Shown here one piece after another: positions 5,213-59,635 of a DNA stretch of 64,000 nucleotides. The position numbers were made by a program, and so were the translations under genes. Position 1 is the first letter of the stretch; each line of letters starts with the position of its first letter. The notes under the pieces were generated by a model, which saw nothing but the letters and a program-made list of their open reading frames with translations, searched no databases and was not told the origin of the DNA. The stretch is from IMG/VR virus record IMGVR_UViG_3300018050_000923; one strand, written 5' to 3'. Source of the stretch: an uncultured virus (IMG/VR IMGVR_UViG_3300018050_000923) (taxonomy: Duplodnaviria > Heunggongvirae > Uroviricota > Caudoviricetes).

Positions 5213-6685
5213 ATGCTTGGATGGATAGGCAAATGGGCAAACTCCAAAGGTATGGGAAAGATCCCAAACCTTGAAGGCTTATCTAGAGCAGATGCAAGAA
5301 ATACAATTATAAATGCTGGATTTAATTTAGGAAATGAAACAGCAACTGGAAACGGTGCAAACTCTTCTAATAATGGAAAAGCAAAGGGAAGATCAGATAC
5401 TAATCAATTATTAAATTATGAATCACAAATAGATTTTGAATATTATGATCATGTAACTCCACCCGTCACTCCACCTGTTACTCCACCAGTCACCCCACCT
5501 GTGACCCCACCTGTCACTCCACCAGTCACCCCACCTGTGACCCCACCTGTGACTCCACCAGTCACCCCACCTGTTACCCCACCTGTTACACCACCTGTTA
5601 CACCACCTGTGACACCACCAGTGACTCCAGTAACAACATACTATTACGGATGGTGTGATCAAGGAACATTAGAACCTGTAATAGAGTCAACAATATATGG
5701 ACCTTGTTCTTCAATTCTTGCTGGATGGGAAAATTCTTATGGCTATCCTCCAATAGGATGGGCCTGTGGAACAACTCCAGCAGAAGGTATTCCAGATTGT
5801 ACTCTAGCACCTGTTACTCCACCTGTTACTCCACCTGTGACCCCACCTGTAACTCCACCTGTAACACCAGTATCAACAACTGTTTATTATAGTTATTGTG
5901 ATCAGGGAACCAATTATTTAGTAGGTCCATATTCTCATACTGCAACTGGAACAGTAGCATCAATATGTAATGATCTTTATAATAATTTTGATTACACTAA
6001 TGGATATCCTCCAGTTGGATGGGCTTGCGGTGCAACACAACAGGCAGGAACTGCTTCATGCACAACAGCACCTGTAACTCCACCAGTAACCCCACCAGTA
6101 ACCCCACCAGTAACCCCACCTGTGACCCCACCTTCATATAGCAACTACTATGGATTCTGCTCTACAACAAATTCACCACAAGGACCATTTGGACCATATA
6201 ATCAATCATGTTCTGATTTGGCAAATGGTGTAGAAAATGCATATGGGTATCTTCCAAGTGGATGGGTTTGCGGACCTTCTTCTGCAGCAGGAACACCTTC
6301 TTGTACTGTAGCGCCAGTCACCCCACCAGTAACCCCACCAGTAACCCCACCAGTTACTCCACCTGTGACTCCACCTGTGACTCCACCTGTGACTCCACCT
6401 GTGACTCCACCTGTGACTCCACCTGTGACTCCACCAGTCACCCCACCTGTGACTCCACCTGTGACTCCACCAGTAACCCCACCAGTAACCCCACCTGTGA
6501 CCCCATCAAGTAGCCAAACTTATTACTGGTGTTGCTGTGGAAATCTTGGAGGATGTCAATCATATACATTTAGTAGTGCATCAGAGGCTGCTGCAACAGC
6601 AAATGCTGTTTGTGAGGGAGGATATGGATCTGGATTATGCGGAGGACCAAGTACAAGTCCATCATCAGGATGCGGATGTCTGTAA
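5213..6685 (+). CDS. PASTA-like domain + (VTPP)n + Cys-rich module protein
   Basis: IPNLEGLSRADARNTIINAGFNLG (PASTA-like); about 38 VTPP units in 4 blocks; 3 homologous 4-Cys modules; 8-Cys tail. Confidence 0.8.
   Translation: MLGWIGKWANSKGMGKIPNLEGLSRADARNTIINAGFNLGNETATGNGANSSNNGKAKGRSDTNQLLNYESQIDFEYYDHVTPPVTPPVTPPVTPPVTPPVTPPVTPPVTPPVTPPVTPPVTPPVTPPVTPPVTPPVTPVTTYYYGWCDQGTLEPVIESTIYGPCSSILAGWENSYGYPPIGWACGTTPAEGIPDCTLAPVTPPVTPPVTPPVTPPVTPVSTTVYYSYCDQGTNYLVGPYSHTATGTVASICNDLYNNFDYTNGYPPVGWACGATQQAGTASCTTAPVTPPVTPPVTPPVTPPVTPPSYSNYYGFCSTTNSPQGPFGPYNQSCSDLANGVENAYGYLPSGWVCGPSSAAGTPSCTVAPVTPPVTPPVTPPVTPPVTPPVTPPVTPPVTPPVTPPVTPPVTPPVTPPVTPPVTPPVTPPVTPSSSQTYYWCCCGNLGGCQSYTFSSASEAAATANAVCEGGYGSGLCGGPSTSPSSGCGCL
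5453..6505 (+). repeat. 12-bp coding tandem repeat GTN ACN CCA CCN in four blocks (14, 4, 5, 15 full units)
   Basis: Blocks begin at 5453, 5813, 6074, 6317; variation only at third codon positions. Confidence 0.9.
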
Positions 6686-6693
6686 TAACCAAC

Positions 6694-6722
6694 TTGCAAA
6701 ATTTTTACTTTAATGATAGAAT
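6694..6722 (+). promoter_or_regulatory. Sigma70-type promoter for the enzyme cluster
   Basis: TTGCAA-17 bp-TAGAAT with TG extension; ATG at 6732. Confidence 0.65.
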
Positions 6723-6731
6723 GGAACTACT

Positions 6732-7079
6732 ATGTTAACGGATAACGATATATTATTTAATGATAACGATGAGTCGCAATTATTAGAAAAATTAAGTGTA
6801 GGTGATGAATATCACGTTCCTGGAACAATTGTTTGCATTTATGATAATGATGGAAATATTGAGGCTGCTAAACAGTTTTCTACGCATTCTTGGTTTATAG
6901 AAATATTACAAAATTCATCTAAAATAGAATGCGTAAATGATGATTGTTCAATTATTAAGTTTATTGACATTAATGATAATGAAATAAATCAGTTAACAAC
7001 TACATCACAACTTGGGTCAATGCTTGCAAGCAATCCAAAGTTACATTTTGGTCATTCTATAAGAACTAAGAAAGAATAA
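6732..7079 (+). CDS. Hypothetical protein
   Basis: ORF directly after the promoter. Confidence 0.55.
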   Translation: MLTDNDILFNDNDESQLLEKLSVGDEYHVPGTIVCIYDNDGNIEAAKQFSTHSWFIEILQNSSKIECVNDDCSIIKFIDINDNEINQLTTTSQLGSMLASNPKLHFGHSIRTKKE

Positions 7080-7081
7080 AA

Positions 7082-7312
7082 ATGACAACTCCGTGGGAGA
7101 GATATAAGCAAAATTTAGGATCAACAAGGCCTTGGGATTTATTAAATCCTCAAGCACCAAGAACAACAGATGAGGTCGCATACTCTAGATATAATATATG
7201 CTTGTTGTGTCCAGAACTAATTAATGCTACAAAGCAATGCAAGAAGTGTGGATGTTTCATGAACCTTAAAGTAAAATTAGAAGGGGCTACATGCCCATTA
7301 GGAAGGTGGTAA
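7082..7312 (+). CDS. Small Cys-rich metal-binding protein (DUF6171-like by recollection)
   Basis: CLLC..CKKCGC..CPLGRW. Confidence 0.6.
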   Translation: MTTPWERYKQNLGSTRPWDLLNPQAPRTTDEVAYSRYNICLLCPELINATKQCKKCGCFMNLKVKLEGATCPLGRW

Positions 7313-7314
7313 AT

Positions 7315-7881
7315 ATGAAAGAATTAGCGCCAGGAATAGTTGTTTTTGATAATATATTTCCAAACTCAATGGAGTATATAAAAAAAATAAATGAAGAAGA
7401 AATGTCTTGGCAGGCAGCAGAAGTTCTTGTTAGTCAAGATGAAAATAAATCAGGAACTAATTATAAGGCAAGAGATACAGATTTAATTATGCTGCCACAT
7501 CATATGAATAACGCTACTGGAACATTAGCAGATTTTGCTAAAGAATTTCATAAGGAGTTAAAACCATGTTTAGATCAATATTTAAGTTTTTATGCAGCAA
7601 AAATAGAAAAGTTTGAACACCCACAATTATTACGTTATGGTAAAGAACAAAAGTTTCATGATCACATTGACGATCATCCATTTTTTACAAGAAGAATATC
7701 TTTAACATATTATTTAAATGATCAATATGAGGGCGGGGATGTAGAGTTTAAGCGTTTTGGATTAAGGTTTAAAGCACAAAAAAATCAATTACTTATATTT
7801 CCATCTAACTTTGTATATAATCATGAAGTACATCCAGTTACAGATGGCTTAAGGTACGTGGTTGTTCAATGGATGGCATAA
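7315..7881 (+). CDS. 2OG-Fe(II) oxygenase, prolyl 4-hydroxylase-like
   Basis: LLRY..FHDHIDD..RISLTYYLND.YEGG..F..LIFPSNF.YNHEVHPV..GLRY: HxD..H triad and 2OG-binding Arg. Confidence 0.85.
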   Translation: MKELAPGIVVFDNIFPNSMEYIKKINEEEMSWQAAEVLVSQDENKSGTNYKARDTDLIMLPHHMNNATGTLADFAKEFHKELKPCLDQYLSFYAAKIEKFEHPQLLRYGKEQKFHDHIDDHPFFTRRISLTYYLNDQYEGGDVEFKRFGLRFKAQKNQLLIFPSNFVYNHEVHPVTDGLRYVVVQWMA

Positions 7882-8654
7882 AGAAATCTATTGTCTACTC
7901 TTTATACTTTGAAAATAATCCAATAACTCATCATAATTATTTACAATTAAAAAAATCTATAGAATCAATAAGAAAATTTTCTAATATAGATATTTTTATA
8001 TATTTATCTTCAGACTATGACTTAAAAGAAAATTTTATAAAAACAAATAACATAAATATTATAAAGTTTGATAATAATTTAGTGTTTAAAAAATGGAGCG
8101 ATAAAATACCAAACCACCCATGGAATGTTTGGCTTCATCATAGATGGATTAATATATTTAATTTTTTAACAAATAATGAATATGATAAGATTTTATATTT
8201 AGATACTGATACAATATTTTATAAGAGTCCAGAAGAACTTTTTAATAAATATAATAAAGATATATGTTATTTTAAAAAAGAGTTTAATGATAATGTTGTA
8301 CAAGATTTTATAAAAAAAATATCAATATATCCAGGCATAAATGATGGTCAAATGATTATAAGTAAAAATTCAATAATAAAACTATATGATTCATTTGAAA
8401 ATCAATGGACTAAAGAGATCAGTAACATTACAGATCTAGTTTATAATGATTTAACTAAAGATAATGATCATATATTTTTTTGGAATGTTTCACAATATGC
8501 AGCGCTTTCTTGTATTATAAAAAATAATATACAATATGAATATTTTGATGATAAAGATATTGCACTTGGCATAGACTTTGATCGCATGGACAAAAAAGAA
8601 ATATTTTTGCATCATTATTTTTCTGGAAATATGAGGAAATATATAAATGAATAA
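7869..8654 (+). CDS. GT-A fold glycosyltransferase (GT8-like)
   Basis: LKKSIESIRK..YDKILYLDTDTIF (DxD)..INDG..Q..HHYF; very AT-rich. Confidence 0.7.
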   Translation: MDGIKKSIVYSLYFENNPITHHNYLQLKKSIESIRKFSNIDIFIYLSSDYDLKENFIKTNNINIIKFDNNLVFKKWSDKIPNHPWNVWLHHRWINIFNFLTNNEYDKILYLDTDTIFYKSPEELFNKYNKDICYFKKEFNDNVVQDFIKKISIYPGINDGQMIISKNSIIKLYDSFENQWTKEISNITDLVYNDLTKDNDHIFFWNVSQYAALSCIIKNNIQYEYFDDKDIALGIDFDRMDKKEIFLHHYFSGNMRKYINE

Positions 8655-9207
8655 AGAATATGGAATAATAAAGAATGTTTTAAACACTAAAGACTTTTTA
8701 AATATTTCAAATTATTTTTTAAATAATGAAAAATTAAAAAATATTGGGACGGATGAGTTTGGTAGAAAGTTATTAGGTGATCAGTCTGAACCAATATTGA
8801 AAGAATTTAGCGATATCTTACTTCCCAAGGTTAGAGAGTTTTTTGGAAGCGAAACATTAAAATCTTCATATAATTTATTTGCAGAATATTCAGCAGACAC
8901 AATTAGTCTTCATAAGCATAAAGATGCAAATGCCTGTACGTATACCCTAGACTTAACGCTATATCAAAAAGAACCTTGGGGTATTTTTATCAATGAACAA
9001 GAGTTTTTGGCAAATCCAAATGATGCTGTAATGTTCATGGGTGAAAAATACGAACATTGGAGAGAAACAAAGTATAACAATTATGATAAAATTGGTGTAG
9101 TGTTTTTTCACTACGTTGAGCCAGATCATTGGTATTTTACAGAGGGTCCAGGGTATGTTGAAAAAATAAGAGAACAAATGAGGAGTAATAATGTCATCAA
9201 TAACTAG
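8647..9207 (+). CDS. 2OG-Fe(II) oxygenase-like protein
   Basis: LHKHKDANACTY..GEKYEHWRE..VFFHYV: HxD..H. Confidence 0.65.
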   Translation: MNKEYGIIKNVLNTKDFLNISNYFLNNEKLKNIGTDEFGRKLLGDQSEPILKEFSDILLPKVREFFGSETLKSSYNLFAEYSADTISLHKHKDANACTYTLDLTLYQKEPWGIFINEQEFLANPNDAVMFMGEKYEHWRETKYNNYDKIGVVFFHYVEPDHWYFTEGPGYVEKIREQMRSNNVINN

Positions 9208-9907
9208 CCCAATCGCTATTAAAAACTTTTTGCCACCGCATATGTTTGGCAATGTTAAAAAGCAAATATTAGATAAAAAAATGGGACCAGACGGAAATCA
9301 TTTTTATCACACCGTTGCTGGTAGATGGCTGACGGAAATTCATTTTGATGAAGAAACAGAAAAAGAAATCTTAGATATAGCAAGAAAAACATTTAATAAT
9401 CCAAACTTAAAACGTGCAGGGTTTCATACAGCAAGGTACCAAATGCAAAATGGAATTAAGCCACAATTGTGGAAGCATTGGGATCAGTCTGCTTGTCAGT
9501 ATTCTTTAGATATCTGTATTGAGAAAACTGTAGATTGGAAACTAGTTGTTGAAGATCAAGAATTTGAAGAAGAGCCTAATAGTTGTGTGCTATTTTCTGG
9601 AAACGATATGCTTCACTGGAGAACTCCATATCCTAGTGATAAAGAAGACGATTATGTAACATTATTATTTATGCAGTTTGCAGAGCCTGACCATTGGTTT
9701 TTTACAGAAGGTGGAAAGGCTGGCTTTGATAAGCATGGACATGAAGCGGACTTTAGATTTAGAGCCAGAATGGGATATTGGTCTCAGCCAGATTATTCCG
9801 ACGGAAGACCAATATGCCCATGCTGCGATTACCGTGGTGTTTTAGAATTTGAAGAACGATATCAAAAAGAAAAACACCTATGGGAAAATGCTAATTTGGA
9901 AAATTAG
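9191..9907 (+). CDS. 2OG-Fe(II) oxygenase-like protein, paralog of the previous gene
   Basis: LWKHWDQSACQY..GNDMLHWR..EPDHWFFTEG shared with 8647..9207; extra CPCC tail. Confidence 0.65.
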   Translation: MSSITSPIAIKNFLPPHMFGNVKKQILDKKMGPDGNHFYHTVAGRWLTEIHFDEETEKEILDIARKTFNNPNLKRAGFHTARYQMQNGIKPQLWKHWDQSACQYSLDICIEKTVDWKLVVEDQEFEEEPNSCVLFSGNDMLHWRTPYPSDKEDDYVTLLFMQFAEPDHWFFTEGGKAGFDKHGHEADFRFRARMGYWSQPDYSDGRPICPCCDYRGVLEFEERYQKEKHLWENANLEN

Positions 9908-10454
9908 ACATTAGACTCTTTGTTCTTGGAGTAATACCTTTCCAGGCAATCCAATTTTCACCGCCGTTTGACATGTGAAATGCAATCTGAGCATTTAATA
10001 CTGGATTAAATAACTCGTAGTTTGATTCTAATTTAAACTTATCTCTACGTTCAGGACCAAGGTCGCCAATCATATTTATTTGAAATAAGCCATAAGAACT
10101 ATCTCCAGTTCTTTTACTAAGATTTAATGCCATTGGTCTACCGCCAGACTCTTTCTTAGCAATAGCCCAAGCCTCCCTTAGTTTTTGACCTTCAAAACCT
10201 ACTAAATATAGTAAATTTTTAAGTTCTTTGTCAGATAGATTTACAGCATTTTTATATTTTTCTAACTGATCTTCTTTAGCCTTAGAAACACTTTTGGCCA
10301 CTTCCGTGGCCTCTATTGTTTCTTGCAGCACGATATTTTTACTATCGTCTAATCGGTTTTCAGAAGCATTGGCAACATTTGAATAAACACCAAAAATCGC
10401 CAATATGCTGAGTGTACCAATGATGTTCCTGTTATTATTCATAAAGTTAATCAT
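9891..10454 (-). CDS. Secreted lytic transglycosylase (SLT/lysozyme-like)
   Basis: Signal-peptide-like N-terminus; AIAKKESGG (catalytic Glu), SYGLFQIN, LFNPVLNAQIA..W..W; AAGGAGG RBS before ATG 10454. Confidence 0.8.
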   Translation of the reverse strand: MINFMNNNRNIIGTLSILAIFGVYSNVANASENRLDDSKNIVLQETIEATEVAKSVSKAKEDQLEKYKNAVNLSDKELKNLLYLVGFEGQKLREAWAIAKKESGGRPMALNLSKRTGDSSYGLFQINMIGDLGPERRDKFKLESNYELFNPVLNAQIAFHMSNGGENWIAWKGITPRTKSLMSNFPN

Positions 10455-10508
10455 AGTTTCCTCCTTAGAAACGAATAACACCTTTTTAGGGGTGTTATAT
10501 TACTTCTT

Positions 10509-16316: not shown

Positions 16317-17375
16317 ATGGCACTACAAAAAACAGGTGACAGAGGAATAAGAAAGGTAGAAGTACCTAATCTGTCAGGAATGACAAGAAGTCAATACCAG
16401 GCAGAGTTAACCCTAAAAGGTTTAACATATACCGAAACCACTACTACCACATCAAATTCTTCATTAGATCAAAAAATAAATACACAAGGCACTGTTGCTG
16501 GTACTATAGTTAATATAGGTACCAGCATTGCCATAAACTATTATCAGTATGTGTATCCTGGTTTTAGCCATTATGCTGCATTCAGCCACTACGCTGGTTT
16601 CAGCCACTACGCTGGTTTCAGCCACTACGCTGGTTTCAGCCACTACGCTGGATTCTCTCACTATGCTGGCTTCTATCACGGATTCTCCCATTACGGTGGA
16701 TTCTCACACTATGGTGGATTCTCACACTATGGTGGATTCAATCATTATGGAGGCTTCTATCATGGATTTAGCCACTATGGATCGTTCTCTCATCAATCAT
16801 ATGGCGGATTCTCACACTCATCATATGGTTCATTCTCACACTCATCATATGGTGGCTTCTATCACGGATTTAACCATTCCCCAGCATCGTACGGTGGATT
16901 TGGAGATTATTTCTCACTATCACCATCTACAGGTGTTAGAACTCCAGGCGGTATCGTAACTGCTGGATCTCTAAATGTTGGAGATAAATTATTAGCATTA
17001 AATATCGCAGAAGTTGGAACAGGTCAATTTGATCCAGCAACATGGTCTTCAGCAACATTTGATGGTATTGAAGTTGTTGAAACAGAGGTTGTGGCAATCA
17101 GAGAAAGAACTGTTGATAAAATTTACAACATCAATGGAAGCCTTTTCTCTCCATATCACTGGATATTTACAAGAAAGGATAATGTCTACAAGTTTGTATT
17201 GTCAAAAGATATTGACACATCATATGAAGTTTATGACTTTGCAAACCAAGATTGGTCTGCAGTTACAAACATCACAGAATTAAACTATATCGACAATGTA
17301 GTTTCTATTAACTGTGAACCTTATGATAACTTCTTTACAGAAACAATGTTAGTCTTCGATACGAAAGATAACTAA
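16317..17375 (+). CDS. PASTA-like domain + (xGFSHY)n repeats + C-terminal Hint domain
   Basis: VEVPNLSGMT..L..KGL (PASTA-like); 18 F-[S/Y/N]-H motifs; SLSPSTGV..LNVGDKL, SPYH, INCEPYDNFF..LVFD (Hint blocks A, B, F/G). Confidence 0.8.
   Translation: MALQKTGDRGIRKVEVPNLSGMTRSQYQAELTLKGLTYTETTTTTSNSSLDQKINTQGTVAGTIVNIGTSIAINYYQYVYPGFSHYAAFSHYAGFSHYAGFSHYAGFSHYAGFSHYAGFYHGFSHYGGFSHYGGFSHYGGFNHYGGFYHGFSHYGSFSHQSYGGFSHSSYGSFSHSSYGGFYHGFNHSPASYGGFGDYFSLSPSTGVRTPGGIVTAGSLNVGDKLLALNIAEVGTGQFDPATWSSATFDGIEVVETEVVAIRERTVDKIYNINGSLFSPYHWIFTRKDNVYKFVLSKDIDTSYEVYDFANQDWSAVTNITELNYIDNVVSINCEPYDNFFTETMLVFDTKDN
16560..16901 (+). repeat. Coding tandem repeat, mostly 18 bp (TTCAGCCACTACGCTGGT-like)
   Basis: Near-exact units at about 16581-16650 degenerating downstream; encodes GFSHY units. 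Confidence 0.9.
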
Positions 17376-20823: not shown

Positions 20824-20941
20824 TTTGATTTGTAAAATTAAGGGACATAAAGCAGATAAAAAAGAAACGACTTGTCCATTTACATTAAAAACCTATCAGG
20901 TGTGTGTAAGGTGCGGTATCAAAAGGGTTAAACCAGAATGA
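20816..20941 (+). CDS. 41-aa Cys/His zinc-binding-like protein (absent from ORF track)
   Basis: MNSLICKIKGHKADKKETTCPFTLKTYQVCVRCGIKRVKPE; overlaps both neighbours (ATGA coupling). Confidence 0.65.
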   Translation: MNSLICKIKGHKADKKETTCPFTLKTYQVCVRCGIKRVKPE

Positions 20942-22089
20942 AAATAGCAGCATACGGAATAGGTAAAAACGAAGAAAAAAATATACCAGGTTGGTTTGAA
21001 GGTATAAAAGATGCAGATTACGTTTTATATGTAGATACTGGATCAACGGATAAGAGTGTTGAGATAGCAAAATCTTTAGGAATTGATGTTAAGTTTTCTT
21101 ACTTTGACCCGTGGGATGAAACAATGGCTAAAAATGCTGCTCTTTCTTTTATACCATTGGACTTTGATTATTGCATTAACCTAGACATGGATCAACACAT
21201 GAAAAGCAAAGATTGGAAAGAAAAGATATTATTAGAAAATGGCGATTACGAAATAATGTCTTTTAACTTACACTCTTCTCACGGCTTAGCAGATTCTAAT
21301 GTAATTAAAAAATCATTTAAGATCCATAAAAGACAAGGACTTTTTTGGTTTGGATATAGACCAGAAATTAAAAAAATAGGATACAACATTGAAACTGCTT
21401 CTGCTAAAACCTTAGATATAGTGGTTTCTGACATTCCTGGAGATGAGGCTAGGTTTGAAAACAGGGATCCTTTGTATATTAAGTCGTATAAAAATTATGT
21501 AGGAAAATTAAAAAGATCTAGAAATAATGGCATTATGGTTCAGGCTTTAAATTCTTTAGCATTGTCATATTATGAAGTAGACGATAAAGAAAATTTTGAA
21601 AATGTTTATTATGAAATGCAAGAGTTTATATCAAAGGTAGAAGTTGAAAATGATGTAGAAATACCAGATCAGTATGCTGTTAATTTAGCATACACTTTAT
21701 TTAATCCTAATAAAACAATAGATATTTATAATAAGTTATATGGATCTTCAGAAATAAGTTCATATCAAAAATTTTATTTAGATTTAAGAAAAGCAATAAT
21801 TTATTATAAGAAAAAAGAATATCAAAGATTAGAAAAAATATTAAATTTGATTGATTCTGAAAAAACATTTTATGAAGGCAACGAAACCAGATGGGATTCA
21901 TATGCTTTATCAGAAACAGAAATAAACATAATAAAATATTTAAAAAATATAAAAGAAAACAAAAACAATCAAGAATATATAAATGAATTAGATAATCTGT
22001 GTCTTATTGTGTTTTCTAGCATAAATTGGGGCAAGTGGCACACTGATTTAGCACAAAAAAGTTTTGATTATTTTGAGGGGCTAATGTGA
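20938..22089 (+). CDS. GT2-family glycosyltransferase with helical C-terminus
   Basis: GKNEEKNI..VDTGSTDKS..KNAAL..NLDMD. Confidence 0.75.
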   Translation: MKIAAYGIGKNEEKNIPGWFEGIKDADYVLYVDTGSTDKSVEIAKSLGIDVKFSYFDPWDETMAKNAALSFIPLDFDYCINLDMDQHMKSKDWKEKILLENGDYEIMSFNLHSSHGLADSNVIKKSFKIHKRQGLFWFGYRPEIKKIGYNIETASAKTLDIVVSDIPGDEARFENRDPLYIKSYKNYVGKLKRSRNNGIMVQALNSLALSYYEVDDKENFENVYYEMQEFISKVEVENDVEIPDQYAVNLAYTLFNPNKTIDIYNKLYGSSEISSYQKFYLDLRKAIIYYKKKEYQRLEKILNLIDSEKTFYEGNETRWDSYALSETEINIIKYLKNIKENKNNQEYINELDNLCLIVFSSINWGKWHTDLAQKSFDYFEGLM

Positions 22090-23096
22090 ACACAGTAATG
22101 GTAACTGGCGTTGCTGGTTTAGTTGGAAGCAATATTGCTAAAAAATTAATATCAGAAGGATATAATATTGTAGGTGTAGACAATTTTATAGGTGGATATA
22201 GAGATAATGTTCCAGAAGGCGTTTTTCTTATTGAAAAAGATTGCAATGATTTAACAGAGACTGATTTTATTAATGTAGAAACTGTAGTTCATGCTGCATG
22301 TACACCGCATGAAGGTCTTTCTGTTTTTTCCCCAAAGTTTATAACAGATAATACATTTGGCATATCCATGAATGTTTTAAAATGCTCAATACAGTCTGGT
22401 GTTAAAAAGTTTATTTTTACATCAAGTATGGCAAGATACGGTTCTCAAGACATAGTTCCATTTACTGAAGATATGATCCCAAATCCACAAGATCCGTACG
22501 GTATAGCAAAAATTGCATTTGAAAATTCTCTTAAAATTCTTTCAGAAGTTCACGGTATAAAATATGTAGTATTAATTCCACACAATATTATTGGTCCTGG
22601 ACAAGTATATACAGATCCATTTAGAAATGTTGCAGGAATTATGATAAATAGAATGCTAAAAGGATTACAGCCAATAGTCTATGGTGATGGTACTCAAATG
22701 AGATGTTTTTCTGATATTAAAGATGTTGTGGATCCAATATACCATGCTGTAGTAAATGATACAGTAAATGGAGAAACCATAAATATTGGTCCAGATAAAA
22801 ACTATATAACTATTAATGAATTAGCACATACTATAGGAAAAATTATAGGGATGAATGTCGAACCAATATATCTTCCAAAAAGGCCTAAAGAGGTTAAGTT
22901 TGCTAATTGTTCTGCAGACAAAGCAAGAAGTTTATTAAATTATAACCCTGTAACAACTCTTGAATCAACAATTACTGATATGGTAAACTGGGTTAGAACA
23001 AGAGGTCCATTAGATTTTAATTATAATTTACCTGTTGAAATTGTAAATGAATTAACTCCAAAAACTTGGACAGATCAAAAAGTTTTTAATACATAA
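22086..23096 (+). CDS. NAD-dependent nucleotide-sugar epimerase/dehydratase
   Basis: VTGVAGLVGS, SSMARYG, YGIAK (YxxxK), YGDGTQMRCF. Confidence 0.9.
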   Translation: MNTVMVTGVAGLVGSNIAKKLISEGYNIVGVDNFIGGYRDNVPEGVFLIEKDCNDLTETDFINVETVVHAACTPHEGLSVFSPKFITDNTFGISMNVLKCSIQSGVKKFIFTSSMARYGSQDIVPFTEDMIPNPQDPYGIAKIAFENSLKILSEVHGIKYVVLIPHNIIGPGQVYTDPFRNVAGIMINRMLKGLQPIVYGDGTQMRCFSDIKDVVDPIYHAVVNDTVNGETINIGPDKNYITINELAHTIGKIIGMNVEPIYLPKRPKEVKFANCSADKARSLLNYNPVTTLESTITDMVNWVRTRGPLDFNYNLPVEIVNELTPKTWTDQKVFNT

Positions 23097-38485: not shown

Positions 38486-41400
38486 TTGGCAGATGTAAAT
38501 TCTAATATTAATATCAATTTTAATACTGCCGACGCTCTTGCACAATTACGTAGTTTACAGGCTGGCCTCAGTAAGTTTCATCAATCGCTTGCTGAGGGCA
38601 ACCTTGCTGCAGCAAATGCACAAAAAGGATTAAATGCTCAACTAGCACAGGCTATTGGAGCAACAGGAAAGTTTGCTGTAAGTCAAGCAAAAGTCGCATC
38701 AAGTACACTTGCATTTACAACTGCTTTAGAAAAAAACAAATTATCTTTAAAAGAATATTATAGATACAGCATGGCTGCAGCAACAGCCAATACAAAAGTT
38801 TTAGGCAAAGCATTTGCACAAGAACGTGAAATTATTAATCGTGCTCGTAGAGATAGAGTAAAGGCTCTTCAGTCACAATATATTCAAATGTCTAAAGCCC
38901 AAGGTGGCTTTATTGATGCAATGCGTATTATGCCAAAAACATTAGTAATGACTAATGGAAGATTTACAGAACTTGGTACACGTATTCAGTATGCTGCACA
39001 AAGACAACAATTTTTAAATCAATTATTAAAACAAGGCTCAACTCAACTTCTAAATTTTGGTAAGAACACCCAGTGGGCTGGTCGTCAGTTGATGGTAGGT
39101 TTAACAATACCACTATCTATGCTTGGCGGATATGCATCTAAAGCATTTAGAGAATTAGAGCAAGCAACACTAAAGTTTAGGCGTGTTTATGGAGATGCAT
39201 TTACCAATGATGCTGAGGTAGAGTCTGCAGTTGCTAATATAAGAAGACTTGCAGAAGAGTTTACAAAATATGGAGTTGCAGTTAAAGATACTGTTGATAT
39301 GGCAGCAACTGCTGCTGCAGCAGGTTTTCAAGGTAGAGCATTAGAAGAACAAGTAAAGACTGCTACCAAACTTGCAGTTTTGGGTCAAGTAGAACAACAG
39401 CAGGCTCTAGAAACTACAATATCATTACAAAATGCTTTTGGTCTTTCTACAGATCAACTAGCAGAAAAAATTAACTTCTTAAACGCAGTAGAAAACCAAA
39501 CTGTTCTTTCGATTGAAGATTTAACAATTGCAATTCCAAAGGCTGCTCCAGTTGTAAAACAACTTGGCGGTAGTGTTGAGGATCTTGCATTTTTCCTTAC
39601 TGCTATGAAAGAAGGTGGCATCAATGCATCTGAAGGTGCCAACGCACTAAAGTCTGGTCTTGCTTCATTGATTAATCCAACAGAAAAAGCAACCAAATTT
39701 CTTGCTGAAATGGGGATTAATCTAAAGGGTATTGTTGAAGCAAATAAAGGCGATGTTAAAGCAACAGTAGTTGGTTTTGCAAGAGCACTAGACACACTAG
39801 CACCTCTAGAAAGAGCAAGAGCAATTGAACAACTATTTGGAAAATTCCAGTTTGCTCGTTTGTCAACCTTATTCCAAAATGTATCTAAAGATGGAACTCA
39901 GGCGTCTAGAGCATTAGATTTGGCAGGATCAGCAATAGAAGAGTTAGCCGTATTATCTGAACGAGAAATGAAAAAGGTAGAGGATTCAGTAGGAACTAAA
40001 TTCCAGGCTGCTGTTGAGCAGTTTAAGCAAGATATCATGCCTTTAGGTAAGGCATTTCTTGAAGCAGTTACTCCTATTGTTAAGTTTTTTGGAGGACTTT
40101 TTGAAAAGTTCAACAACTTAAGCGATCAAACAAAAAAGGTAGTTGCTATTATCGTAGGTGTTGTTGCTGGTATTGGACCAGTACTACTTATGACATTTGG
40201 TTTATTGGCAAATGGATTAGCAAACTTAATTAAGTTATTTGCCACAATACGTGGTGGCATGGCAAAATTAAATGGCCAAACCAACGTTCTTGGTGCTGGT
40301 TTTGATTATGTTACACAACAACAACTAGAACAGCAGGCTGCAAGTCAAGCCTTACATAATACTCACACCAGACTAGTAGAAGTTTTCAATGTTGAAAGAA
40401 CAGCAGCAATGCAACTAGCATCAGCATATGGAATGCTTTCATCTCAAATGAAAAATATGGCTGCTCAAAATCCAGCATTATTTGCTGGTGGAATGCAGGG
40501 AGCAGCAGGATCAGTATCTAAACTACCTAAGGGTCCAATGAAATTTGCAGATGGAATTATAAGTGTGCCAGGTCCAAAAGGTGCTGGAGATGTTGTTCCA
40601 GCAATGGTTTCTCCAGGAGAAGCAATTATTCCAACTAAGACTTCCGAAAAGTATCGTGGATTAATTACAGCAATGTTCCAAGACAAGGTGCCAGGATTTG
40701 CTGGTGGAAGATTGCCTTGGGGAACATCTCATCCAGTAAGGCAGTCTGGCGCTGTAGATATCGGTATGCCTAAGAAAATAGCAGATGTAACACAGTCCAG
40801 AATGATAGCAGATCAAATTGATAAAGCAGTAAAGTCTTCTAGATTTGCTGAAACAAAACCAACAAACTTTGGAACACTAATGCAACCATTCTCTGGACGA
40901 AGTTTCCCAATACGTGGAGTAGGCGGGGTATATAGAAAGCCAGATGGAAGTTTAGTAGTAGTAAAGCCTACAATGGATGAGAAGACTGCTTTAGCAGAAG
41001 TCCGTGCTACAGAGATAGCAAGAGAAGCACATGGTTTGATTGCTCCAAAGCAAACAATTAAGACAATGATAGATCCAACAGATCCTTCTGGACAAAGAAA
41101 ACTAATTGTTTTAGAGTCTCCATATGATCCAAGAATTGCTGCAGGTGCTGGTAAGTTTAATAAAAAGGATATGATTTCTCAATTAGTGGCATCACTATTG
41201 AGAGCAGACAAAGATTTATCACAGTCAAATGTTTCTGGTAAAGTTTTAGCAGACGTAGGAAATGCTGGGGTTTTTGATAGAGCATCTGGATTTAGAGATT
41301 TTGCAAAAGCATTGCCTTCAATGGAAGAGCAGGCCATGATTAATTTGCTTGGTATTAAGGGTGGTGCTAAAAAATTCTTTGCACAAGAAACATCTGGTTT

Positions 41401-44400
41401 AGCAGCAAACATGACCCCTAAACAATACCATGATGCAATTATTAAAGAGATTGATAAAGTACTTCCAAAATTAAAAGAAACTATCGGAAAGTTTGATCTA
41501 AACCCTGCAGAAAAACTTGTTTACAATGATATGATTAAAAGATTAGAGGCTGGAAAAGCAGTAGACTGGTCAAAGTTTCAAGGCATCCACGCTAATGCTG
41601 GGCAATCAGTAAAGAAGTTGATAGAGGGACAGGGCGGAACCAATTATCAAGATGTTATTGAAAAGCAGGTAGGAAAATTTGCATTAGGAACATTTGATGA
41701 ACTTAAAAATGATCCATCATCTAGGACACAAATAGATACATTAGTAAAAAGATTAGCCAAGGATGCTGTTGATGAAATTGAAGTTCTTAAAAATACTAAT
41801 CCTAAACAACATGAATTAGTTACATCATTACTAACTAAAAAAGGCATTACGCCATCAAATATGACGCAGCATCAATTATTAAAATATATTGAAGATGAAA
41901 TGGTTTATAAAGATGGACGCTATTACGATAAAAAGTCTATAGAGTCTGGTGCAAATGTTGCTTCTGCTGGGAAAACATACAGTGAAGTTAGAGATAAGTT
42001 ATTATATAGATTAGGTGCAGTTGAAAGAGGCGGAGCATTTTCAGACCAAAGAAAGATGAATGTTTCTAAGTTAAGATTTGATATGAGTCCAACAGGAAAA
42101 CAAAGTGGTGGATGGAGACAGTCAATACCAAGAGACTCATTGCTATATAAAGTTTTAGACTCACAAGAAAAAGAATTTAAGGCAGCAAATGCTGCAACAG
42201 GTAAGTCTGATCCGCTAGGTGCTCTAAAGGAGTCAATGAAAGCACTTGGATATACAGACAAACAAATTGCTCAGGCACTAAGACCAGAACTTTCTCATAT
42301 TGCAAAAACTGGTGAATCTGGCAGAGGAACAGAAAAATGGCTTAAGGGCCAAGCATTATTTGATTTAAGATTATTAAATAACTACATGAATACTGGCAAA
42401 AGAACTGGAAGTATTCTTGATTGGAATGAAAAGAGTGGAAACCCTCTTAGACTTACTCCAGATCAAATTAAAGAATTTAGAAATTCTGCAACATATATGT
42501 CTGGACAAAATCATCCAACTACTGAGGCTCAAGTTAAACTAGTACGAGCAGCAACACAACTTGATATTATTGCAGAGGATTTCTTAAAGACTCAACCAAA
42601 GAAGCCAGCAGGTTTTCCAAGTTTAGGAGAAGTAAGACAATCAAGAGCAGTTGCTCAATTAATTGACAGCAGACTTGGCACTGAATATTATTCACAATGG
42701 AGACCACAATTTAATCTAGGAAGTGGAGCAACAAAGGGAACAAATGTTTTAGTAAATCCAAACAAAGAATATATGGTTGATACTGTAACAGGAAAAATAA
42801 CTAAACTAACAACTGCAAATACTTCTTCTAAACCATCAGGCGCAGTTGCAGATACTGGAAAAGCAACAGATAGAAGAGTTGCAACTGAAACAGCAACCAG
42901 AAGAGTGGCCACAGCGCCTCAGGCAAGAGCATTTGGAAGACAGTTTGCTATGGTTGGCAGAGATCAGGGAGACCCTAACTTAAGCAAGGCAGCACGTGGC
43001 CGTATAACTAAGGCCATACAAGATGAGCAAAGACTATTAAGATCAAAAAATAGATTTACAGAAAAAGAAATCAGAGACTCCTTAGAAAGACTAAGAAAGA
43101 GAAAAACTGCAGAAGAACTTGCCGCAGCATCTGCTAGAAAGAAAGCAGAGTTAGAAAGACAAGAAATAAAAAATAGACAAACTGCACAGTTAACTGAAAA
43201 GGAAAGAGCAAAGCAAGATAAAAGAGACATAAAGGCTAGACGTCAAGAAAAGGTTGGTCGTTTTTCTGGTGGAGCCTCAATGGCATTGGGTACTGCTGGT
43301 ATGGCAGCGATGATGGCTGGTAATACTGGTGCTGGTATGGGATTAATGGGTGCTTCTGCTGTTGCTGGTATGGCTCCAATGTTGGCAGGAATGGGGCCAG
43401 TGGGATGGATAAGCACAGCAGCGATTGCTGTTGGAGGAAGTTTATTTGCTCTTAATAAGAGTTTTGAAAATTCTGCAAAGAAACAGGCGGAATACGTAGA
43501 TTCTATTTCTTCAACAACAGCAAAGATGGATCAAATAGGACAAATAACAAACAAGGTTGGCGCATCTCGTGCAATGGAAGAAGTAAGAAAGAAAGGCGTA
43601 TTTGGTGCATACAATGATGTTGAACGTGCTGGAACTGGTTTTGGAGATACATTCTTAACATCTCAAGTTGGTAAGTCAATGGTAACTGGTTTTGTAGATC
43701 AAATGAAACAGTATGGGTCTAAGACTGCTGCTAAAGATTTTGCCTTGCAGTTATCTTCTTATGTTTCTGACGGAGTTTTAGATGCTTCTCAAGCAGCAAG
43801 TATTGCAGATCAAATTGGAATTCAATTAGGTAGTAGAAAATATACTGCTGAAATTATGGGAGATTTACGAGAAATAATTGGTCCAAATGGAGAAGATCTA
43901 TCAACTGATCCACTACAAGTTAGACTTGAAATAATTAAGGCAGCAGGAGAAAGATCTAATACTCTTCTAAAGAGTCTAGGTGCTGCCGAATCTAAAGGGT
44001 TGACTGGAAAAACAGAATCCGCTCAACTAGCAGCATTCGGTATAAACAATGTTCAGATAGCAAAAGCACAGGTAGATGCTACAGAGTGGCAATATAAAAA
44101 GCAAATTCAATTACTTCAAAAAGAATTAGAATCTACAACAAATGCAGAAAAGTTATTATCAATAAAAACAAAAATTGCTAATTTAGAAAGTAAGATGGCT
44201 TCAGATGTTAAGTTAGCAAATAAAGAAATAGTAAAGCAAATTGATAAAGAAACCAAGATATTTGAAACAAGAATTAGACAAAGCCAAGTTGGAATTTTTT
44301 CTGGTGCCAAAGAAGATGCTTATTTTGATGCATTAAAATCTAAAGTAAAAGATGCATTTAAGGGTACAGAGTTTGAAACAATGGCATCTGATACTTTATC

Positions 44401-47400
44401 TAGATTAGCAAAATTAAGCGACCTAACTGTAAACCCATTTGATGGTGGAAAAACAAAGGGTGGTTTTGAAAATGCACAAAAGGCTCAAAGTTTTGAAGTA
44501 CAGATGCAAATGCTTCTAGGTAATAAAATTATAAATCCAGAACAAATGAATACTTTTATGGCTATGTTTGAAGGCAGGTTGCCAGAATTAGGAACAACAT
44601 TAAAGGTAGGAATTGAAAAACAAGGTGCAGATGCCACTATAGAAATGTTAGAATATTTTTCAGGCTTTGAAAATCAAGGAAAAGCCGTAGAGATTTCTAC
44701 AAAGTTAATAAATGGTGATCCTAAAACCTTTAAAGAAGTTGGCGAAGCGATGGCTCAACTACGTGTGCTTGATGGTCACGAAGTTAATATGGAAGCATAC
44801 ATTACTACAGTTGGATATGATGGATTAGTTAAACTATCTAAAGATTTAGCAAAAATTGAAGCAATGCCAGACAAGTTAGATAAGCAATTAATTCTTGATT
44901 ACTTTACAACTGGAAATGGCGCTGGAATGAAGGGAATGACACAAGATAACCTAAAGGTGTTATTTGCTCAGTGGGCTGATTTTGATAAGTTACCAGATAA
45001 GGCTCAAAAAGAAGCGATTTCAAAGTTTACAACAATATATCAGACTATCTTTGCAGATGAAGCATCAAGAAAGAAATATGCAGAAGAACAAGCGGATGCT
45101 GCTGCAAGGGAGTCTGGCTTTAGGGGTAGAACTGCTGCAGCATATAAGAAGAAAAGATATGACGAGATTATGGCAGGAACTCTTTCCGAGGCTCAGGCAA
45201 GAGAGGCTGCTCGTGCAACAAAAACGTATATTGGTGAAAATGGAGAATTGATTACTAAGCCAGGAGGGGCAGTTGGAGATACCCCAGGTGCTGGTACTAA
45301 AGAAGATCCATACGAAGAGTTATTGAGAAGATTAAAGAATGTTCGTAATGCAGCGATTAATGCTGCTGGTGGAATAAAGGAATTAAATAAAGCGCTTTCG
45401 GATAAAGGATTAAAATCTGTTAAAGATAAATATCAGGGTATTGAGCAACAGTTAAATAAAATGGGATATAGTAGACAATACGCTGATTATCTAATGGGCC
45501 TATCTCAAAAAGATCAAGATAAATTGTTTAAAGTTACTTCTGAAAAAATTACAAAGGGTAAAAATAAAGGAAGATTTAAAGATCCATTTACTGGAAAGGC
45601 AATGCCAAAGGGTACAAAAGCAGGGGACCTTGTGCTTTCTGCAGAGGGTAAGTTAAGAGCACAAGCATTTGATGCAGCAATTATAGGAGAGTTTAATACT
45701 GCTGCAGGTAAAACATTAACAATTTTTAATGAACAAGAAACAGTTAGAAGAAAGTTAGCAGCATTAGGATATGATCAAACTGCTATTGAAAGAATTCTTT
45801 CAGACGAATATACAACCCAACTCATATATAATGGAAAGATTACAGATCAAGATCTAAAAACAAATGCTGCGCTCAACAATCAAGTTGTACTTAGAGAAAA
45901 AATAAACAATTTAATTTCTAGAGGATTAAAGGCTCAACAAGAAGCAGCAAACGTTAAGCAGATTCCTAAGGTATTAGAGTTTTTCCAAAAGATGTCTAAG
46001 GAAGGATTATCATTATCTTCTGGGGCAATGTTAGACATGATTGGAGATCCAGAATCTCTTGAGGCAGCAATTGCTGCTATGAATGATTATGAATCAAATG
46101 CGGAAGGCGCCAGAGATAGACTAAAAGAAATAGTAGACGGTTTAAACGCAATAAAGGCTAACTCAAATATTAAATTAATCATGGATTTTGTTTCAAAGAA
46201 TCCAGCAGAAAAAGCACAGGCTGGATTTGAAGCAGCAAAAAGAGTTATGGAAGTTAGACGCAATATATATTCTAATATGACTGTAGGGGAACTTCCAGGT
46301 ATCAGAACAGCAGACAGAAAAGCAAAAGATGGAACATTAATTTCTGGAAAGAATATTGGAAGTCAGGCTATTGCAAATGTTGCAGCAAGATACCAGGCTG
46401 CTGGGGTTGCAATTCCAACTATTACTCCAGGTGCAACATTAAAGGGTATCCAGACAAAGAGAGCAGACTTGGCTAAAACTATGCAAATAGGACAGCAAGC
46501 CCTGTCTTCACTGCAGGCATCATATAATGCAAAGCAGGATGCTTTAAATAATGCTCAGGATAATTTAGAAAAAGCCTTAGACGCTGCCAATGATAAGTAT
46601 GATAATTTAATAGATGCTCAAGAAAATATTATTAAGGGATTAGAAGAAAAGATTAAGATAGATTATGAAGATAAAATTACTGCTCTTAATAAAGAATCTG
46701 ATAAATTAAACAATGACTTAGCAATAATGGACCATGCTGCAGATAAAATAAATGAAAAGTATGACAAGCAAGTAGAAGCATTACAGAAGATTTCAGATAT
46801 TAATCAACAAATTGCAGAGTCTCAGTCTCAACAATTAGATTTAGCGGATGCATTATCACAAGGTGATATAGCAGCAGCAGCACGAGCAGCACAAGAGATG
46901 AGGGCCTCTAGTTCCGCAAATGCTTTAGATGCCTCTATGCAGAGTATAGAGAAAGCAAGAAAAACTGAAATCGATGCACTCCGTGGTTCAGAAACTGGAA
47001 TGACAAGACAGCAAATTGCTGAAAGACAATTCCAGATATCACAACAAATATATAAACTAGAAACTGATCCTAAGAGACTTGAGTTAGAAAAACAAATTGA
47101 GGCTGCAAAAACTGAAATTACTAGACTAGAAAAAGAACGAGAAGTAGCAATTAAAAATATTAATGCTGAACATGATGCAATGATTGCTAAACTTAAGAGT
47201 GAATTGGAAAATATTAATCAACAAGTTACAGCGCAGCAAAATATATTAACTTCGTTAGAAAAACAAGATGCTGAGTTAGCATCACAAGAAACATACATGC
47301 AGTCGATAGTTGATGAAGCAGTCGCTTTAGATGATAGCACTGGAATGACTTTAGAAAAGTGGGAAGAAACTGTAGACAAGTTAATCGATATCGAGCAGTT

Positions 47401-59339: not shown

Positions 59340-59635
59340 GTAAGAAAAACCATATGGAATGGTTAGAGGCCCTAAAAACTATGGGTCATAAAAAGTATTG
59401 GAATAGAGCAAACACTGTAGAGTTTTTTGCCTTTGTTGCTAAAGCAATGATTATTTTACCAGGTTTGCTGTTTGACATAAGTGTTTGGTGGTTTTATATT
59501 TTTGCATTGGTTTCAAGCCTTGGGCTTATCTGGTCTTCAACTGTAAAAACAATACCAACCCTAATTTGGTTTAACATACTATGGTCAATTTTAGCAATAC
59601 TTTATATTGCAAAATATTTTGGTGTTATTTTATGA
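59336..59635 (+). CDS. Small membrane protein
   Basis: About three hydrophobic helices. Confidence 0.6.
   Translation: MSKKNHMEWLEALKTMGHKKYWNRANTVEFFAFVAKAMIILPGLLFDISVWWFYIFALVSSLGLIWSSTVKTIPTLIWFNILWSILAILYIAKYFGVIL

Follow-up and report, generated by a model that had tools for sequence, protein, structure and literature searches.

We analyzed a stretch of 64,000 nucleotides (hereafter the window; G+C content 35%) from an uncultured tailed virus, corresponding to bases 23020-87019 of the 117,625-base IMG/VR record IMGVR_UViG_3300018050_000923, which is rated complete by CheckV. At positions 5213-9907 of the window, a gene for a fibre-like protein with tandem Val-Thr-Pro-Pro (VTPP) units is followed by six plus-strand genes, tightly packed or overlapping, which encode a prolyl 4-hydroxylase (P4H)-type 2-oxoglutarate (2OG) oxygenase, two further putative 2OG oxygenases (oxyB and oxyC), a glycosyltransferase and two small proteins. 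With moderate confidence, we interpret this segment as a phage fibre gene together with a cassette for the maturation of its product by hydroxylation and glycosylation. The evidence comes from the repeat itself, from the classes and catalytic motifs of the enzymes, and from the repeated occurrence of a Pro-rich, Cys-bearing fibre gene just upstream of related cassettes in uncultured phages.

The VTPP protein (5213-6685, plus strand, 490 amino acids) consists of an 80-residue N-terminal domain, four (VTPP)n linkers and four Cys-rich modules. The complete VTPP units number exactly 38 and are distributed over four blocks of 14, 4, 5 and 15, located at residues 81-139 (14 units plus VTP), 201-219 (4 plus VTP), 288-307 (5) and 369-431 (15 plus VTP) and encoded at 5453-5629, 5813-5869, 6074-6133 and 6317-6505. 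The units are written in 17 different 12-nucleotide forms without any non-synonymous change, so that the impression of an earlier note on this DNA, about 38 units held constant at the protein level with synonymous variation only, proved accurate. The Cys-rich modules, each of about 60 residues with 4 to 8 cysteines, alternate with the VTPP blocks, and the last of them forms the C-terminal knob. Proline-rich repeats such as these linkers take up an extended polyproline-II conformation. This is the sole Pro-rich open reading frame (ORF) among the 163 ORFs of the 117.6-kb genome, and we have counted this fact in favour of the VTPP protein as the available substrate of a prolyl hydroxylase. Codon use in the repeats was also peculiar: Val is encoded by GTG or GTC in 21 of the 38 units (55%) and Thr by ACC in 17 (45%), for which eight large ORFs taken from the window gave 8% and 6%, respectively, and the first Pro is CCA without exception. 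Such deviant codon use in 5453-6505 may reflect selection against repeat identity at the DNA level, or a foreign origin of the repeat.

We also examined the relationship of this protein to known families. Its N-terminal domain resembles PASTA (PF03793) over 27 residues with 17.7 bits (E 0.0035), below the cut-off of 23.2. For Cys module 1 (residues 136-205), no homologue was found at E <= 0.01 among proteins of 269-858 amino acids, and the C-terminal knob, when searched in the Atlas, yielded no feature match of use and only uninformative structural neighbours. When the four modules (M1-M4) were used as phmmer queries, matches were obtained in 7 of 100 loci (designated here by L numbers): M1-M3 recur in L006, L155, L167 and L206, and M4 in L006, L007, L013 and L018, and in L155, L167 and L206 the modules stand behind different linkers. 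Plant-type extensins are characterized by Ser-Pro(3-5) repeats and a signal peptide; the phage unit is VTPP, no Ser-Pro4 is present in the protein, and no hydrophobic signal sequence was seen by eye at its N-terminus, so that the likeness to plant extensin is functional only and not one of membership. The window encodes a second fibre-like protein at 16317-17375 (plus strand), with the layout of the VTPP protein and another linker: an N-terminal PASTA domain above the cut-off (26.1 bits) is followed by about 20 tandem G-F-S-H-Y-[AG] units with a high content of His, Gly and aromatic residues, and by a C-terminal domain of about 150 residues. Its BLASTP comparison with the N-terminal domain of the VTPP protein was not significant.

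The first enzyme of the cassette is the P4H/PKHD-type Fe(II)/2OG oxygenase at 7315-7881 (plus strand, 188 amino acids), a member of PF13640 (2OG-FeII_Oxy_3) with 59.2 bits against the curated cut-off of 27 (E 8.4e-16). A start at another ATG, at 7291, would extend the protein to 196 residues, and the residue numbers given here follow this longer form; the start is probably at 7315, judging from a strong AGGAAGGTGG just upstream of this ATG and from the beginning MKELAPG in 10 of 18 homologues. The residues of its HxD...H...R motif, H125, D127, H178 and R188, are invariant in all 18 sequences and align with the motifs of LH3, 3dkq and the P4H of Bacillus anthracis. When the family profile was searched against the PDB, PKHD-type hydroxylases (1.7e-6), the B. 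anthracis P4H (6.6e-6) and the P4H of the chlorovirus PBCV-1 (5c5t, 4.2e-4) were found, and mimivirus L230 and LH3 are further relatives by sequence.

The last two genes of the cassette are paralogues, aligned by hhalign with 98.8% probability (E 5e-17): oxyB (8647-9207, plus strand, 186 amino acids), which has an HKD...H motif and matches phrog_2954 at 5.9e-17, and oxyC (9191-9907, plus strand, 238 amino acids). In 22 sequences of both types, H96, D98 and H142 (oxyC numbering) are invariant, and K95 and R144 are likewise shared; no Pfam family was matched by either. The AlphaFold2 (AF2) model of oxyC, with a predicted local distance difference test score (pLDDT) of 86.1 and a predicted template-modelling score (pTM) of 0.83, shows a double-stranded beta-helix followed by a C-terminal helical extension with a conserved Cys cluster. 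Foldseek placed ALKBH7 on top, together with the Pseudomonas putida P4H, a Dictyostelium PHD-type prolyl hydroxylase, PHD2 and the PBCV-1 P4H (vCPH), with prolyl hydroxylases predominating (E 1e-7 to 6e-6, template-modelling (TM) scores 0.45-0.52), and the ribosomal oxygenase YcfD is also among the fold relatives. The predicted fold of oxyC matches a 2OG oxygenase of the prolyl-hydroxylase/AlkB kind, and oxyB is predicted from its sequence to be a 2OG oxygenase as well. In two relatives, oxyC and a P4H-type domain are found in a single ORF of 446-456 amino acids (L082:4383-5753, minus strand, with the PF13640 match at residues 363-446; L091:7838-9178, plus strand).

Between these oxygenases lies the gene for a GT-A fold, GT8-like (retaining-type) glycosyltransferase of 261 amino acids (7869-8654, plus strand), whose DxD motif is D112-T-D114. 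Its family comprises 13 proteins, all of which are called 'hypothetical protein' where a source name exists, and L111, D112, T113 and D114 (LDTD) as well as the C-terminal H248 and H249 are invariant in 10 of 10 sequences. The AF2 model (pLDDT 85.4, pTM 0.87) was matched by Foldseek to LARGE1, UGGT, XXYLT1, LgtC, glycogenin and GlyE with probability 1.00, and also to alpha-1,3-GalT (E 3e-9 to 1e-6 and TM 0.5-0.62 overall); the class is thus assigned by the modelled fold, from which a donor and an acceptor can be only proposed. A sequence search of the PDB gave nothing significant, the best enzyme being the Skp1 alpha-galactosyltransferase 6mw5 (E 1.1). On the basis of these results, the identities read earlier from the letters alone, namely a P4H-like 2OG oxygenase beginning at 7315 (a probable start), a DxD glycosyltransferase and two more oxygenase-like paralogues, are upheld. 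Two further genes, whose products could be sources or users of nucleotide sugars, lie about 11 kb downstream of the cassette (20938-23096, plus strand): one product is GT2-like (phrog_13126, 3.6e-29, with a weak match in Pfam) and the other is a sugar epimerase/dehydratase of the NAD-dependent type (PF01370, 4e-43).

Phages are known to hypermodify their DNA with an oxygenase and a glycosyltransferase acting as a pair, and we have considered whether the enzymes modify phage DNA or nucleotides by TET/JBP-like hydroxylation and subsequent glycosylation. We regard this as extremely unlikely. A weak Tet_JBP match does exist (16.7 bits, with the cut-off at 34.9; E 0.0044), and AlkB-family proteins occur among the fold matches of oxyC; the PF13640 match of 59 bits is far stronger, however, and the PDB profile matches are peptidyl hydroxylases or uncharacterised PKHD-type hydroxylases. 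Moreover, the cassette is located in the fibre module and not among the replication genes, and the families that accompany it in relatives (PF11397, GT61, radical-SAM with SPASM domain and JmjC) are protein-directed. As a separate observation, a tryptophan-halogenase-like protein (phrog_2928, 9e-106) is encoded at 59581-61125 (plus strand), among the replication genes.

The linkage of fibre gene and cassette was investigated in other genomes. Neither a blastn search with 5213-9907 nor a tblastn search with the VTPP protein gave any match among 50,697 deposited phage records, and hence no cultured phage with such a fibre is found there. We list the results of three search routes into IMG/VR. 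Route (a) started from relatives of the P4H-type protein and returned 23 loci, of which 13 distinct ones were examined. A Pro-rich (17-35% Pro), Cys-bearing repeat ORF was present one to three genes upstream in 12 of these 13, with VTPP, VVPP, VNPP, VSPP or TPPPIIA repeats followed by a small Cys-rich knob; the exception, L026, has a P4H that is only 37-38% identical and has no DUF6171 gene (the family of the second small protein, described below). Route (b) used a DNA pattern of four VxPP units and gave at least 121 stretches, 80 of them with flanks. The cassette was found in 10 of these 80 flanked loci, always just downstream and on the same strand; the remaining 70 encode unrelated VxPP proteins, and because the hidden Markov models (HMMs) were cassette-specific, other P4H types may have escaped.

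Route (c) took DUF6171 alone as the start. At least 578 related loci were obtained, the best 80 were used, and 64 of these were assessable, each having 1.5 kb or more of sequence on the upstream side. As the criterion, we took a Cys-dense ORF on the same strand that ends no more than 3 kb upstream of DUF6171, and counted it as Pro-rich if a 40-residue window within it contained at least 25% Pro; the region 1.5-4.5 kb downstream of DUF6171 served as the control in 53 loci. A Cys-dense ORF was present upstream in 61 of the 64 loci, compared with 12 of 53 in the downstream control, and it was also Pro-rich in 53 of 64, compared with none of 53. With the threshold raised to 35% Pro, the counts were 39/64 upstream, 2/53 downstream and 5/64 on the reverse strand. 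The loci range in G+C content from 32 to 53%, and their linker units include VTPP, VVPP, FFPP/HFPP, (TP)n, (VTP)n, (APTP)n, (VTPA)n, TPPPIIA, FTPYS and NPSV, with poly-Gly, poly-Ser or poly-Thr linkers in a minority. The repeat unit varies across divergent uncultured phages; Pro recurs in all of the units listed apart from these minority linkers, and the linkage to the cassette persists. Fibre ORFs of the relatives also carry FN3, Laminin_G_3, PA14, F5/8-type-C and Flg_new domains, and in two Cys-rich fibre ORFs (L220:3000-4964 and L226:2518-4479) we noticed by eye Hint/intein-like stretches (C-I-V-G-S-T..., ending ...T-H-N).

The same collection bears on the collagen-like fibres of the window, which the earlier note had named as alternative substrates of the P4H-type enzyme. 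Two such ORFs do exist at 2-709 and 719-1438, that is, 4 to 5 kb upstream, and the enzyme's relatives B. anthracis P4H, mimivirus L230 and LH3 are deposited under prolyl- or lysyl-hydroxylase (procollagen) names; the enzyme might hydroxylate Gly-X-Y triplets, like the collagen hydroxylases of bacteria and giant viruses, and leave the VTPP protein untouched. The collagen-like stretches in the window are short, with 9 and 13 triplets. Furthermore, ORFs with at least six Gly-X-Y triplets accompany just 6 of the 23 cassette-bearing loci, compared with a repeat fibre in 22 of 23, the remaining locus having just 895 nucleotides of upstream sequence. The ORFs are real, and we judge their role as the substrate to be very unlikely.

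Between the VTPP gene and the six downstream genes lies a gap of 46 nucleotides (6686-6731). It contains a promoter-like hexamer pair at 6694-6722 (plus strand; TTGCAA and TAGAAT separated by 17 nucleotides, TG-extended, 9 of 12 matches), and no terminator-like site was found after the VTPP gene. Such promoter-like sites are frequent in this AT-rich region (40, compared with 25.8 +/- 5.0 in shuffles), and, with a match of this quality and no terminator before it, the earlier statement that the enzymes form a separately promoted operon cannot be regarded as established. The first small ORF (6732-7079, plus strand, 115 amino acids) has no Pfam or PHROG match; its homologues occupy the same slot, after the fibre gene and before that for DUF6171, in L006, L007, L012-L014 and L018, and other relatives have unrelated small ORFs of 68-154 amino acids there. 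The position is typical of a fibre assembly factor, a role that this protein might have. An 'S-S-N-P' motif that had appeared to be shared by ORFs of this type was dropped as a general claim, because a loose form of the pattern was present in only 16 of 64 loci.

The second small protein (7082-7312, plus strand, 76 amino acids) is DUF6171-like. Its match to DUF6171 (PF19668) has 22.5 bits, under the cut-off of 27, and it matches phrog_13558 at E 1.9e-14 and, with an Atlas feature score of 0.97, clusters that are partly labelled DUF6171. Six invariant cysteines are arranged as CxxC...CxxCxC...CPxGxW, and C40, C43, C53, C56, C58, C71, P72, G74 and W76 were found in 19 of 19 sequences; this Cys pattern suggests a zinc-ribbon fold. 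The cassettes all begin with the DUF6171 gene. In loci such as L200 and L225, a Cys-rich fibre gene and DUF6171 are followed directly by the terminase gene, an arrangement indicating that it is the fibre, and not the enzymes, to which DUF6171 is linked. Together with the product of 6732-7079, whose gene likewise accompanies the fibre gene constantly, the DUF6171-like protein probably acts in fibre assembly or in enzyme recruitment. In bacterial genomes, DUF6171 was found in only three short contigs, all from metagenome bins, and these gave no clue to the host.

With respect to the wider setting, the window encodes a portal, a prohead protease, a major capsid protein, many tail-fibre-like proteins, a ribonucleotide reductase, a helicase and a primase. 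The portal is about 45% identical to portals of large Streptomyces siphophages, and the neighbours of 5213-9907 match tail-fibre and virion PHROGs; the segment is probably one functional unit in the tail-fibre module of a siphovirus-like phage. Directly after the cassette, at 9891-10481, lies the only minus-strand gene of this region, which encodes an SLT/lysozyme-like protein (SLT_3, 3e-15) with a hydrophobic N-terminal segment, and the same arrangement occurs in L006 and L008-L011. Further downstream, a tape-measure protein of 3207 amino acids is encoded at 38486-48109 (plus strand), and its length implies an unusually long tail.

The genes that follow DUF6171 vary among the relatives. They encode P4H-type proteins, oxyB, oxyC, fused oxyC-P4H, cupin or JmjC proteins, radical-SAM/SPASM enzymes, GT61, PF11397 and GT8-like glycosyltransferases, UDP-glucose dehydrogenase, carbamoyltransferase and DUF6065, and the families exchanged in this manner are typical of protein modification. 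GT61 is present in L010, L016, L019, L089 and L093, and the PF11397 'GlcNAc' glycosyltransferase in L023, L063, L072, L163, L203, L206 and L228; no PF11397 protein stands next to a hydroxylase in the window. We take PF11397 to be CAZy GT60, the family of the Skp1 hydroxyproline GlcNAc-transferase. In PMC6939170, Gnt1 is described as the hydroxyproline-specific GlcNAc-transferase of Skp1 belonging to CAZy GT60, a family that also holds a polypeptide GlcNAc-transferase of Trypanosoma cruzi. Glycosyltransferases occur also beside repeats that lack Thr (VVPP in L016, L019 and L093; FFPP in L228), which favours hydroxyproline over Thr as the acceptor in those phages.

These cassettes can also be considered from the side of the Cys-rich modules. 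The enzymes may act on the same fibre at another site, either in the modules, by EGF-like aspartyl/asparaginyl hydroxylation and O-glycosylation, or directly on Thr, and the Pro repeats may be passive spacers. Consistent with this, the Cys-dense upstream ORF is more constant (61/64) than the Pro-rich one (53/64), and some cassette-linked fibres have Gly, Ser or Thr linkers. L203 and L206, with poly-Thr, poly-Gly or APTN linkers, have PF11397 directly after DUF6171 and no oxygenase, and this fits direct glycosylation of Thr there, in only two loci. The GT8-like family of the window was itself seen only beside Thr-containing linkers (the window, L006, L008/L009, L011 and L223). EGF repeats are the substrates of XXYLT1, a fold relative of the window's glycosyltransferase, and of EOGT, a member of GT61, and radical-SAM/SPASM enzymes, present in several relatives, are typical peptide cross-linkers. 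On the other hand, the oxygenase belongs to the PF13640 P4H/PKHD clade and not to the AspH type, the Cys modules are too diverse to present a conserved acceptor motif, as seen from the matches in only 7 of 100 loci, and the glycosyltransferases beside Thr-free VVPP and FFPP linkers remain to be accommodated. We judge modification at such another site to be distinctly unlikely. The radical-SAM proteins with SPASM domains, which lie inside the cassettes of L010, L016, L023 and L093 beside Cys-rich fibres, suggest thioether-type cross-links in the knobs of some relatives; no such gene is present in the window.

Returning to maturation of the Pro-rich linkers, we infer from the observed repeat, enzyme classes, catalytic motifs and linkage a substrate, a site, a sugar and a structural consequence as follows. 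The fibre would be a receptor-binding fibre or whisker, in which small Cys-rich binding modules are spaced by (VTPP)n linkers. The fibre protein and the cassette enzymes would be made together in the host cytoplasm, late in infection; their genes share one strand, with tight packing or overlaps. The P4H-type enzyme (7315-7881), with Fe(II), 2-oxoglutarate and O2, would then hydroxylate prolines of the Pro-Pro pairs, and oxyB and oxyC would hydroxylate further positions or the second proline. Next, the glycosyltransferase (7869-8654) would use a nucleotide sugar to attach a sugar in alpha linkage to the new hydroxyproline or to Thr. In this way a stiff, hydrophilic, protease-resistant stalk, mucin- or extensin-like, would arise and present the Cys-rich knobs to the surface of the host.

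Several observations weigh against such a maturation pathway. The glycosyltransferase has no significant Pfam match (Mannosyl_trans3 E 0.03, Nucleotid_trans E 0.8), and the profile comparison of the P4H-type protein with oxyB or oxyC was not significant (E 0.08 and 0.14, respectively), so that their kinship is one of fold and motif only. Among the 64 DUF6171 loci, 8 to 11 have Gly-, Ser- or Thr-rich linkers or none, and 7 of the 50 Pro-linker loci have no oxygenase detectable by the HMMs used. The presence of a Pro-rich linker and that of an oxygenase are associated when the loci are simply counted (43/7/3/5, nominal Fisher p 0.007), but this association is gone when relatedness is controlled on the DUF6171 tree (median p 1). 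Because this control offers only 3 supported, or 6 total, independent pairs without any consistent direction, we have not taken the Fisher value as independent support. The linked loci may come from one broad phage group, with synteny that is inherited and not selected. The stiff phage stalk with O-glycosylated hydroxyproline or Thr that the earlier note had envisaged is thus partly supported: the enzyme identities and the fibre-cassette linkage stand, and the linker-oxygenase association does not survive the control of relatedness.

A further point against it comes from cultured phages. In the cyanomyoviruses Sf-FS3, S-SSM7 and S-IOM18, a DUF6171-like gene lies directly before 2OG oxygenase genes, and no Pro-rich ORF was found within 5-6 kb of this pair. 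In Synechococcus phage Sf-FS3 (L149, 5896-11609) and in S-SSM7 (L232, 4902-10141), the DUF6171-like gene is upstream of the first of two 2OG oxygenase genes, overlapping it in Sf-FS3, and in both phages the oxygenases are followed by dehydratase and epimerase, methyltransferase and glycosyltransferase genes. A related cassette thus exists in phages that can be studied together with their hosts. When Sf-FS3, S-SSM7, S-IOM18 and S-CBWM1 were searched with a DNA pattern of four xxPP units, one match each was obtained in two records; these matches are about 150 kb or more from the cassette, and the reversed control pattern is equally frequent. We rejected them as repeat fibres because, by eye, they are the reverse strand of Gly-rich coding sequence. 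Stenotrophomonas phage Moby has a DUF6171-like gene with no annotated oxygenase nearby.

These cyanophages are the natural starting point for the view that the cassette is unrelated to the fibre, being instead a mobile auxiliary island that sits in a plastic tail-fibre region and acts on host proteins, such as translation factors and ribosomal proteins, or on envelope glycans. The high variability of cassette content and the lack of covariation under the control of relatedness agree with this view, and the fold relatives of oxyC include the P. putida P4H, which is an EF-Tu prolyl hydroxylase, and YcfD. In addition, PMC9301287 ranks P4HA with the viral auxiliary genes of widest occurrence in Baltic water and lists it, like galE, gmd and ugd, as an abundant viral gene whose use is unknown; its use by viruses 'remains cryptic' in the words of that paper. 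The positional data speak otherwise: the cassette lies directly downstream of the Cys/Pro fibre gene and on its strand in 53 to 61 of the 64 loci that were found through DUF6171, and the linkage holds over 32-53% G+C while both fibre and cassette content turn over. The spacing of the genes is operon-like, with overlaps, and even in S-IOM18 the DUF6171/oxygenase pair stands behind fibre-like genes, one of them a Cys-rich ORF. We consider an unrelated island unlikely, although it deserves to be kept in mind more than the alternatives discussed above.

We next compare fibre maturation as proposed here with known systems. Prolyl hydroxylation followed by O-glycosylation of Pro-rich repeats is well known in plants, algae and protists. 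The extensins and arabinogalactan proteins of plants and algae have Pro-rich tandem repeats that, on the established view, form extended rods after these modifications. Their units are Ser-Pro4 or Ala/Thr/Ser-Pro, unlike the VTPP of the phage, and they are processed in the secretory pathway by membrane-bound enzymes, with hydroxyproline arabinosyl- or galactosyltransferases. Closer in cellular location is the Skp1 pathway of Dictyostelium and Toxoplasma (PhyA, Gnt1/GT60 and further glycosyltransferases), in which a cytoplasmic P4H-type hydroxylase works with soluble glycosyltransferases; PF11397 glycosyltransferases occur in the cassettes of the phage relatives, and the Dictyostelium PHD-type hydroxylase is a fold match of oxyC. 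Skp1 is modified at a single proline according to PMC6939170. The phage protein, in contrast, has about 76 prolines in tandem repeats, the window has a GT8-like enzyme and not PF11397, and it has no Skp1-like acceptor.

Among viruses, PBCV-1 possesses a P4H-type 2OG oxygenase of its own, vCPH, as well as genes for proline-rich repeat proteins, and this enzyme is both a sequence match of the phage P4H profile (5c5t) and a fold match of oxyC. Its activity on (PAPK)n-type peptides was reportedly demonstrated biochemically by Eriksson et al. in 1999, a work cited in PMC9301287. PBCV-1 is, unlike our phage, a virus of a eukaryotic alga, and it is not known to have a fibre gene, a DUF6171 gene or a cassette with a glycosyltransferase next to its P4H gene. 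Mimivirus L230 and LH3/PLOD3, both sequence matches of the phage oxygenase, resemble the cassette in that hydroxylase and glycosyltransferase activities are encoded together, with a viral structural repeat protein as the target. They differ in acting on lysine of collagen Gly-X-Y and in being single bifunctional polypeptides, L230 being that of a giant virus of amoebae. Mycobacteriophages are tailed phages whose own cytoplasmic glycosyltransferases are thought to decorate virion proteins; they use no hydroxylase, and the targets are capsid and tail-tube proteins, not a Pro-repeat fibre. Finally, bacterial glycoside hydrolases have tandem Pro-Thr linkers between small folded binding modules, and these linkers are O-glycosylated in some Gram-positive hosts; such enzymes are secreted and are modified outside the cytoplasm by host machinery, with no dedicated hydroxylase.

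A chlorovirus P4H has been characterised, and giant viruses hydroxylate and glycosylate collagen-like fibres. Our literature searches did not turn up any account of a phage fibre modified by prolyl hydroxylation. Genes for 2OG-Fe(II) oxygenases and P4H-like proteins have been catalogued for years in marine and freshwater phages and viromes, with the substrate not known, and the present locus and about 60 relatives give a concrete candidate: a Pro-repeat, Cys-knob fibre encoded directly upstream. The decoration of phage fibres may explain why such enzymes are common in aquatic phages. More tentatively, and with less confidence than we place in the locus itself, we suggest that aquatic tailed phages could possess their own cytoplasmic mucin/extensin-like pathway, in which hydroxyproline is formed on fast-evolving fibre linkers and is then glycosylated by interchangeable GT8-like, GT61 and PF11397 glycosyltransferases with the help of sugar-nucleotide enzymes of the phage.

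If the interpretation is true, a group of genes now regarded as metabolic would turn out to serve the maturation of virion proteins, and the abundant viral P4HA, galE, gmd and ugd would be largely virion-maturation genes and not metabolic ones. This would also be, as far as our searches of the literature found, the first case of bacteriophage prolyl hydroxylation and possibly of hydroxyproline glycosylation, and hydroxyproline O-glycosylation, which is regarded as eukaryotic, would be a phage trait as well. Phages would then vary their fibre stalks in a modular manner, in both the repeat unit and its decoration, independently of the binding knobs that the stalks carry.

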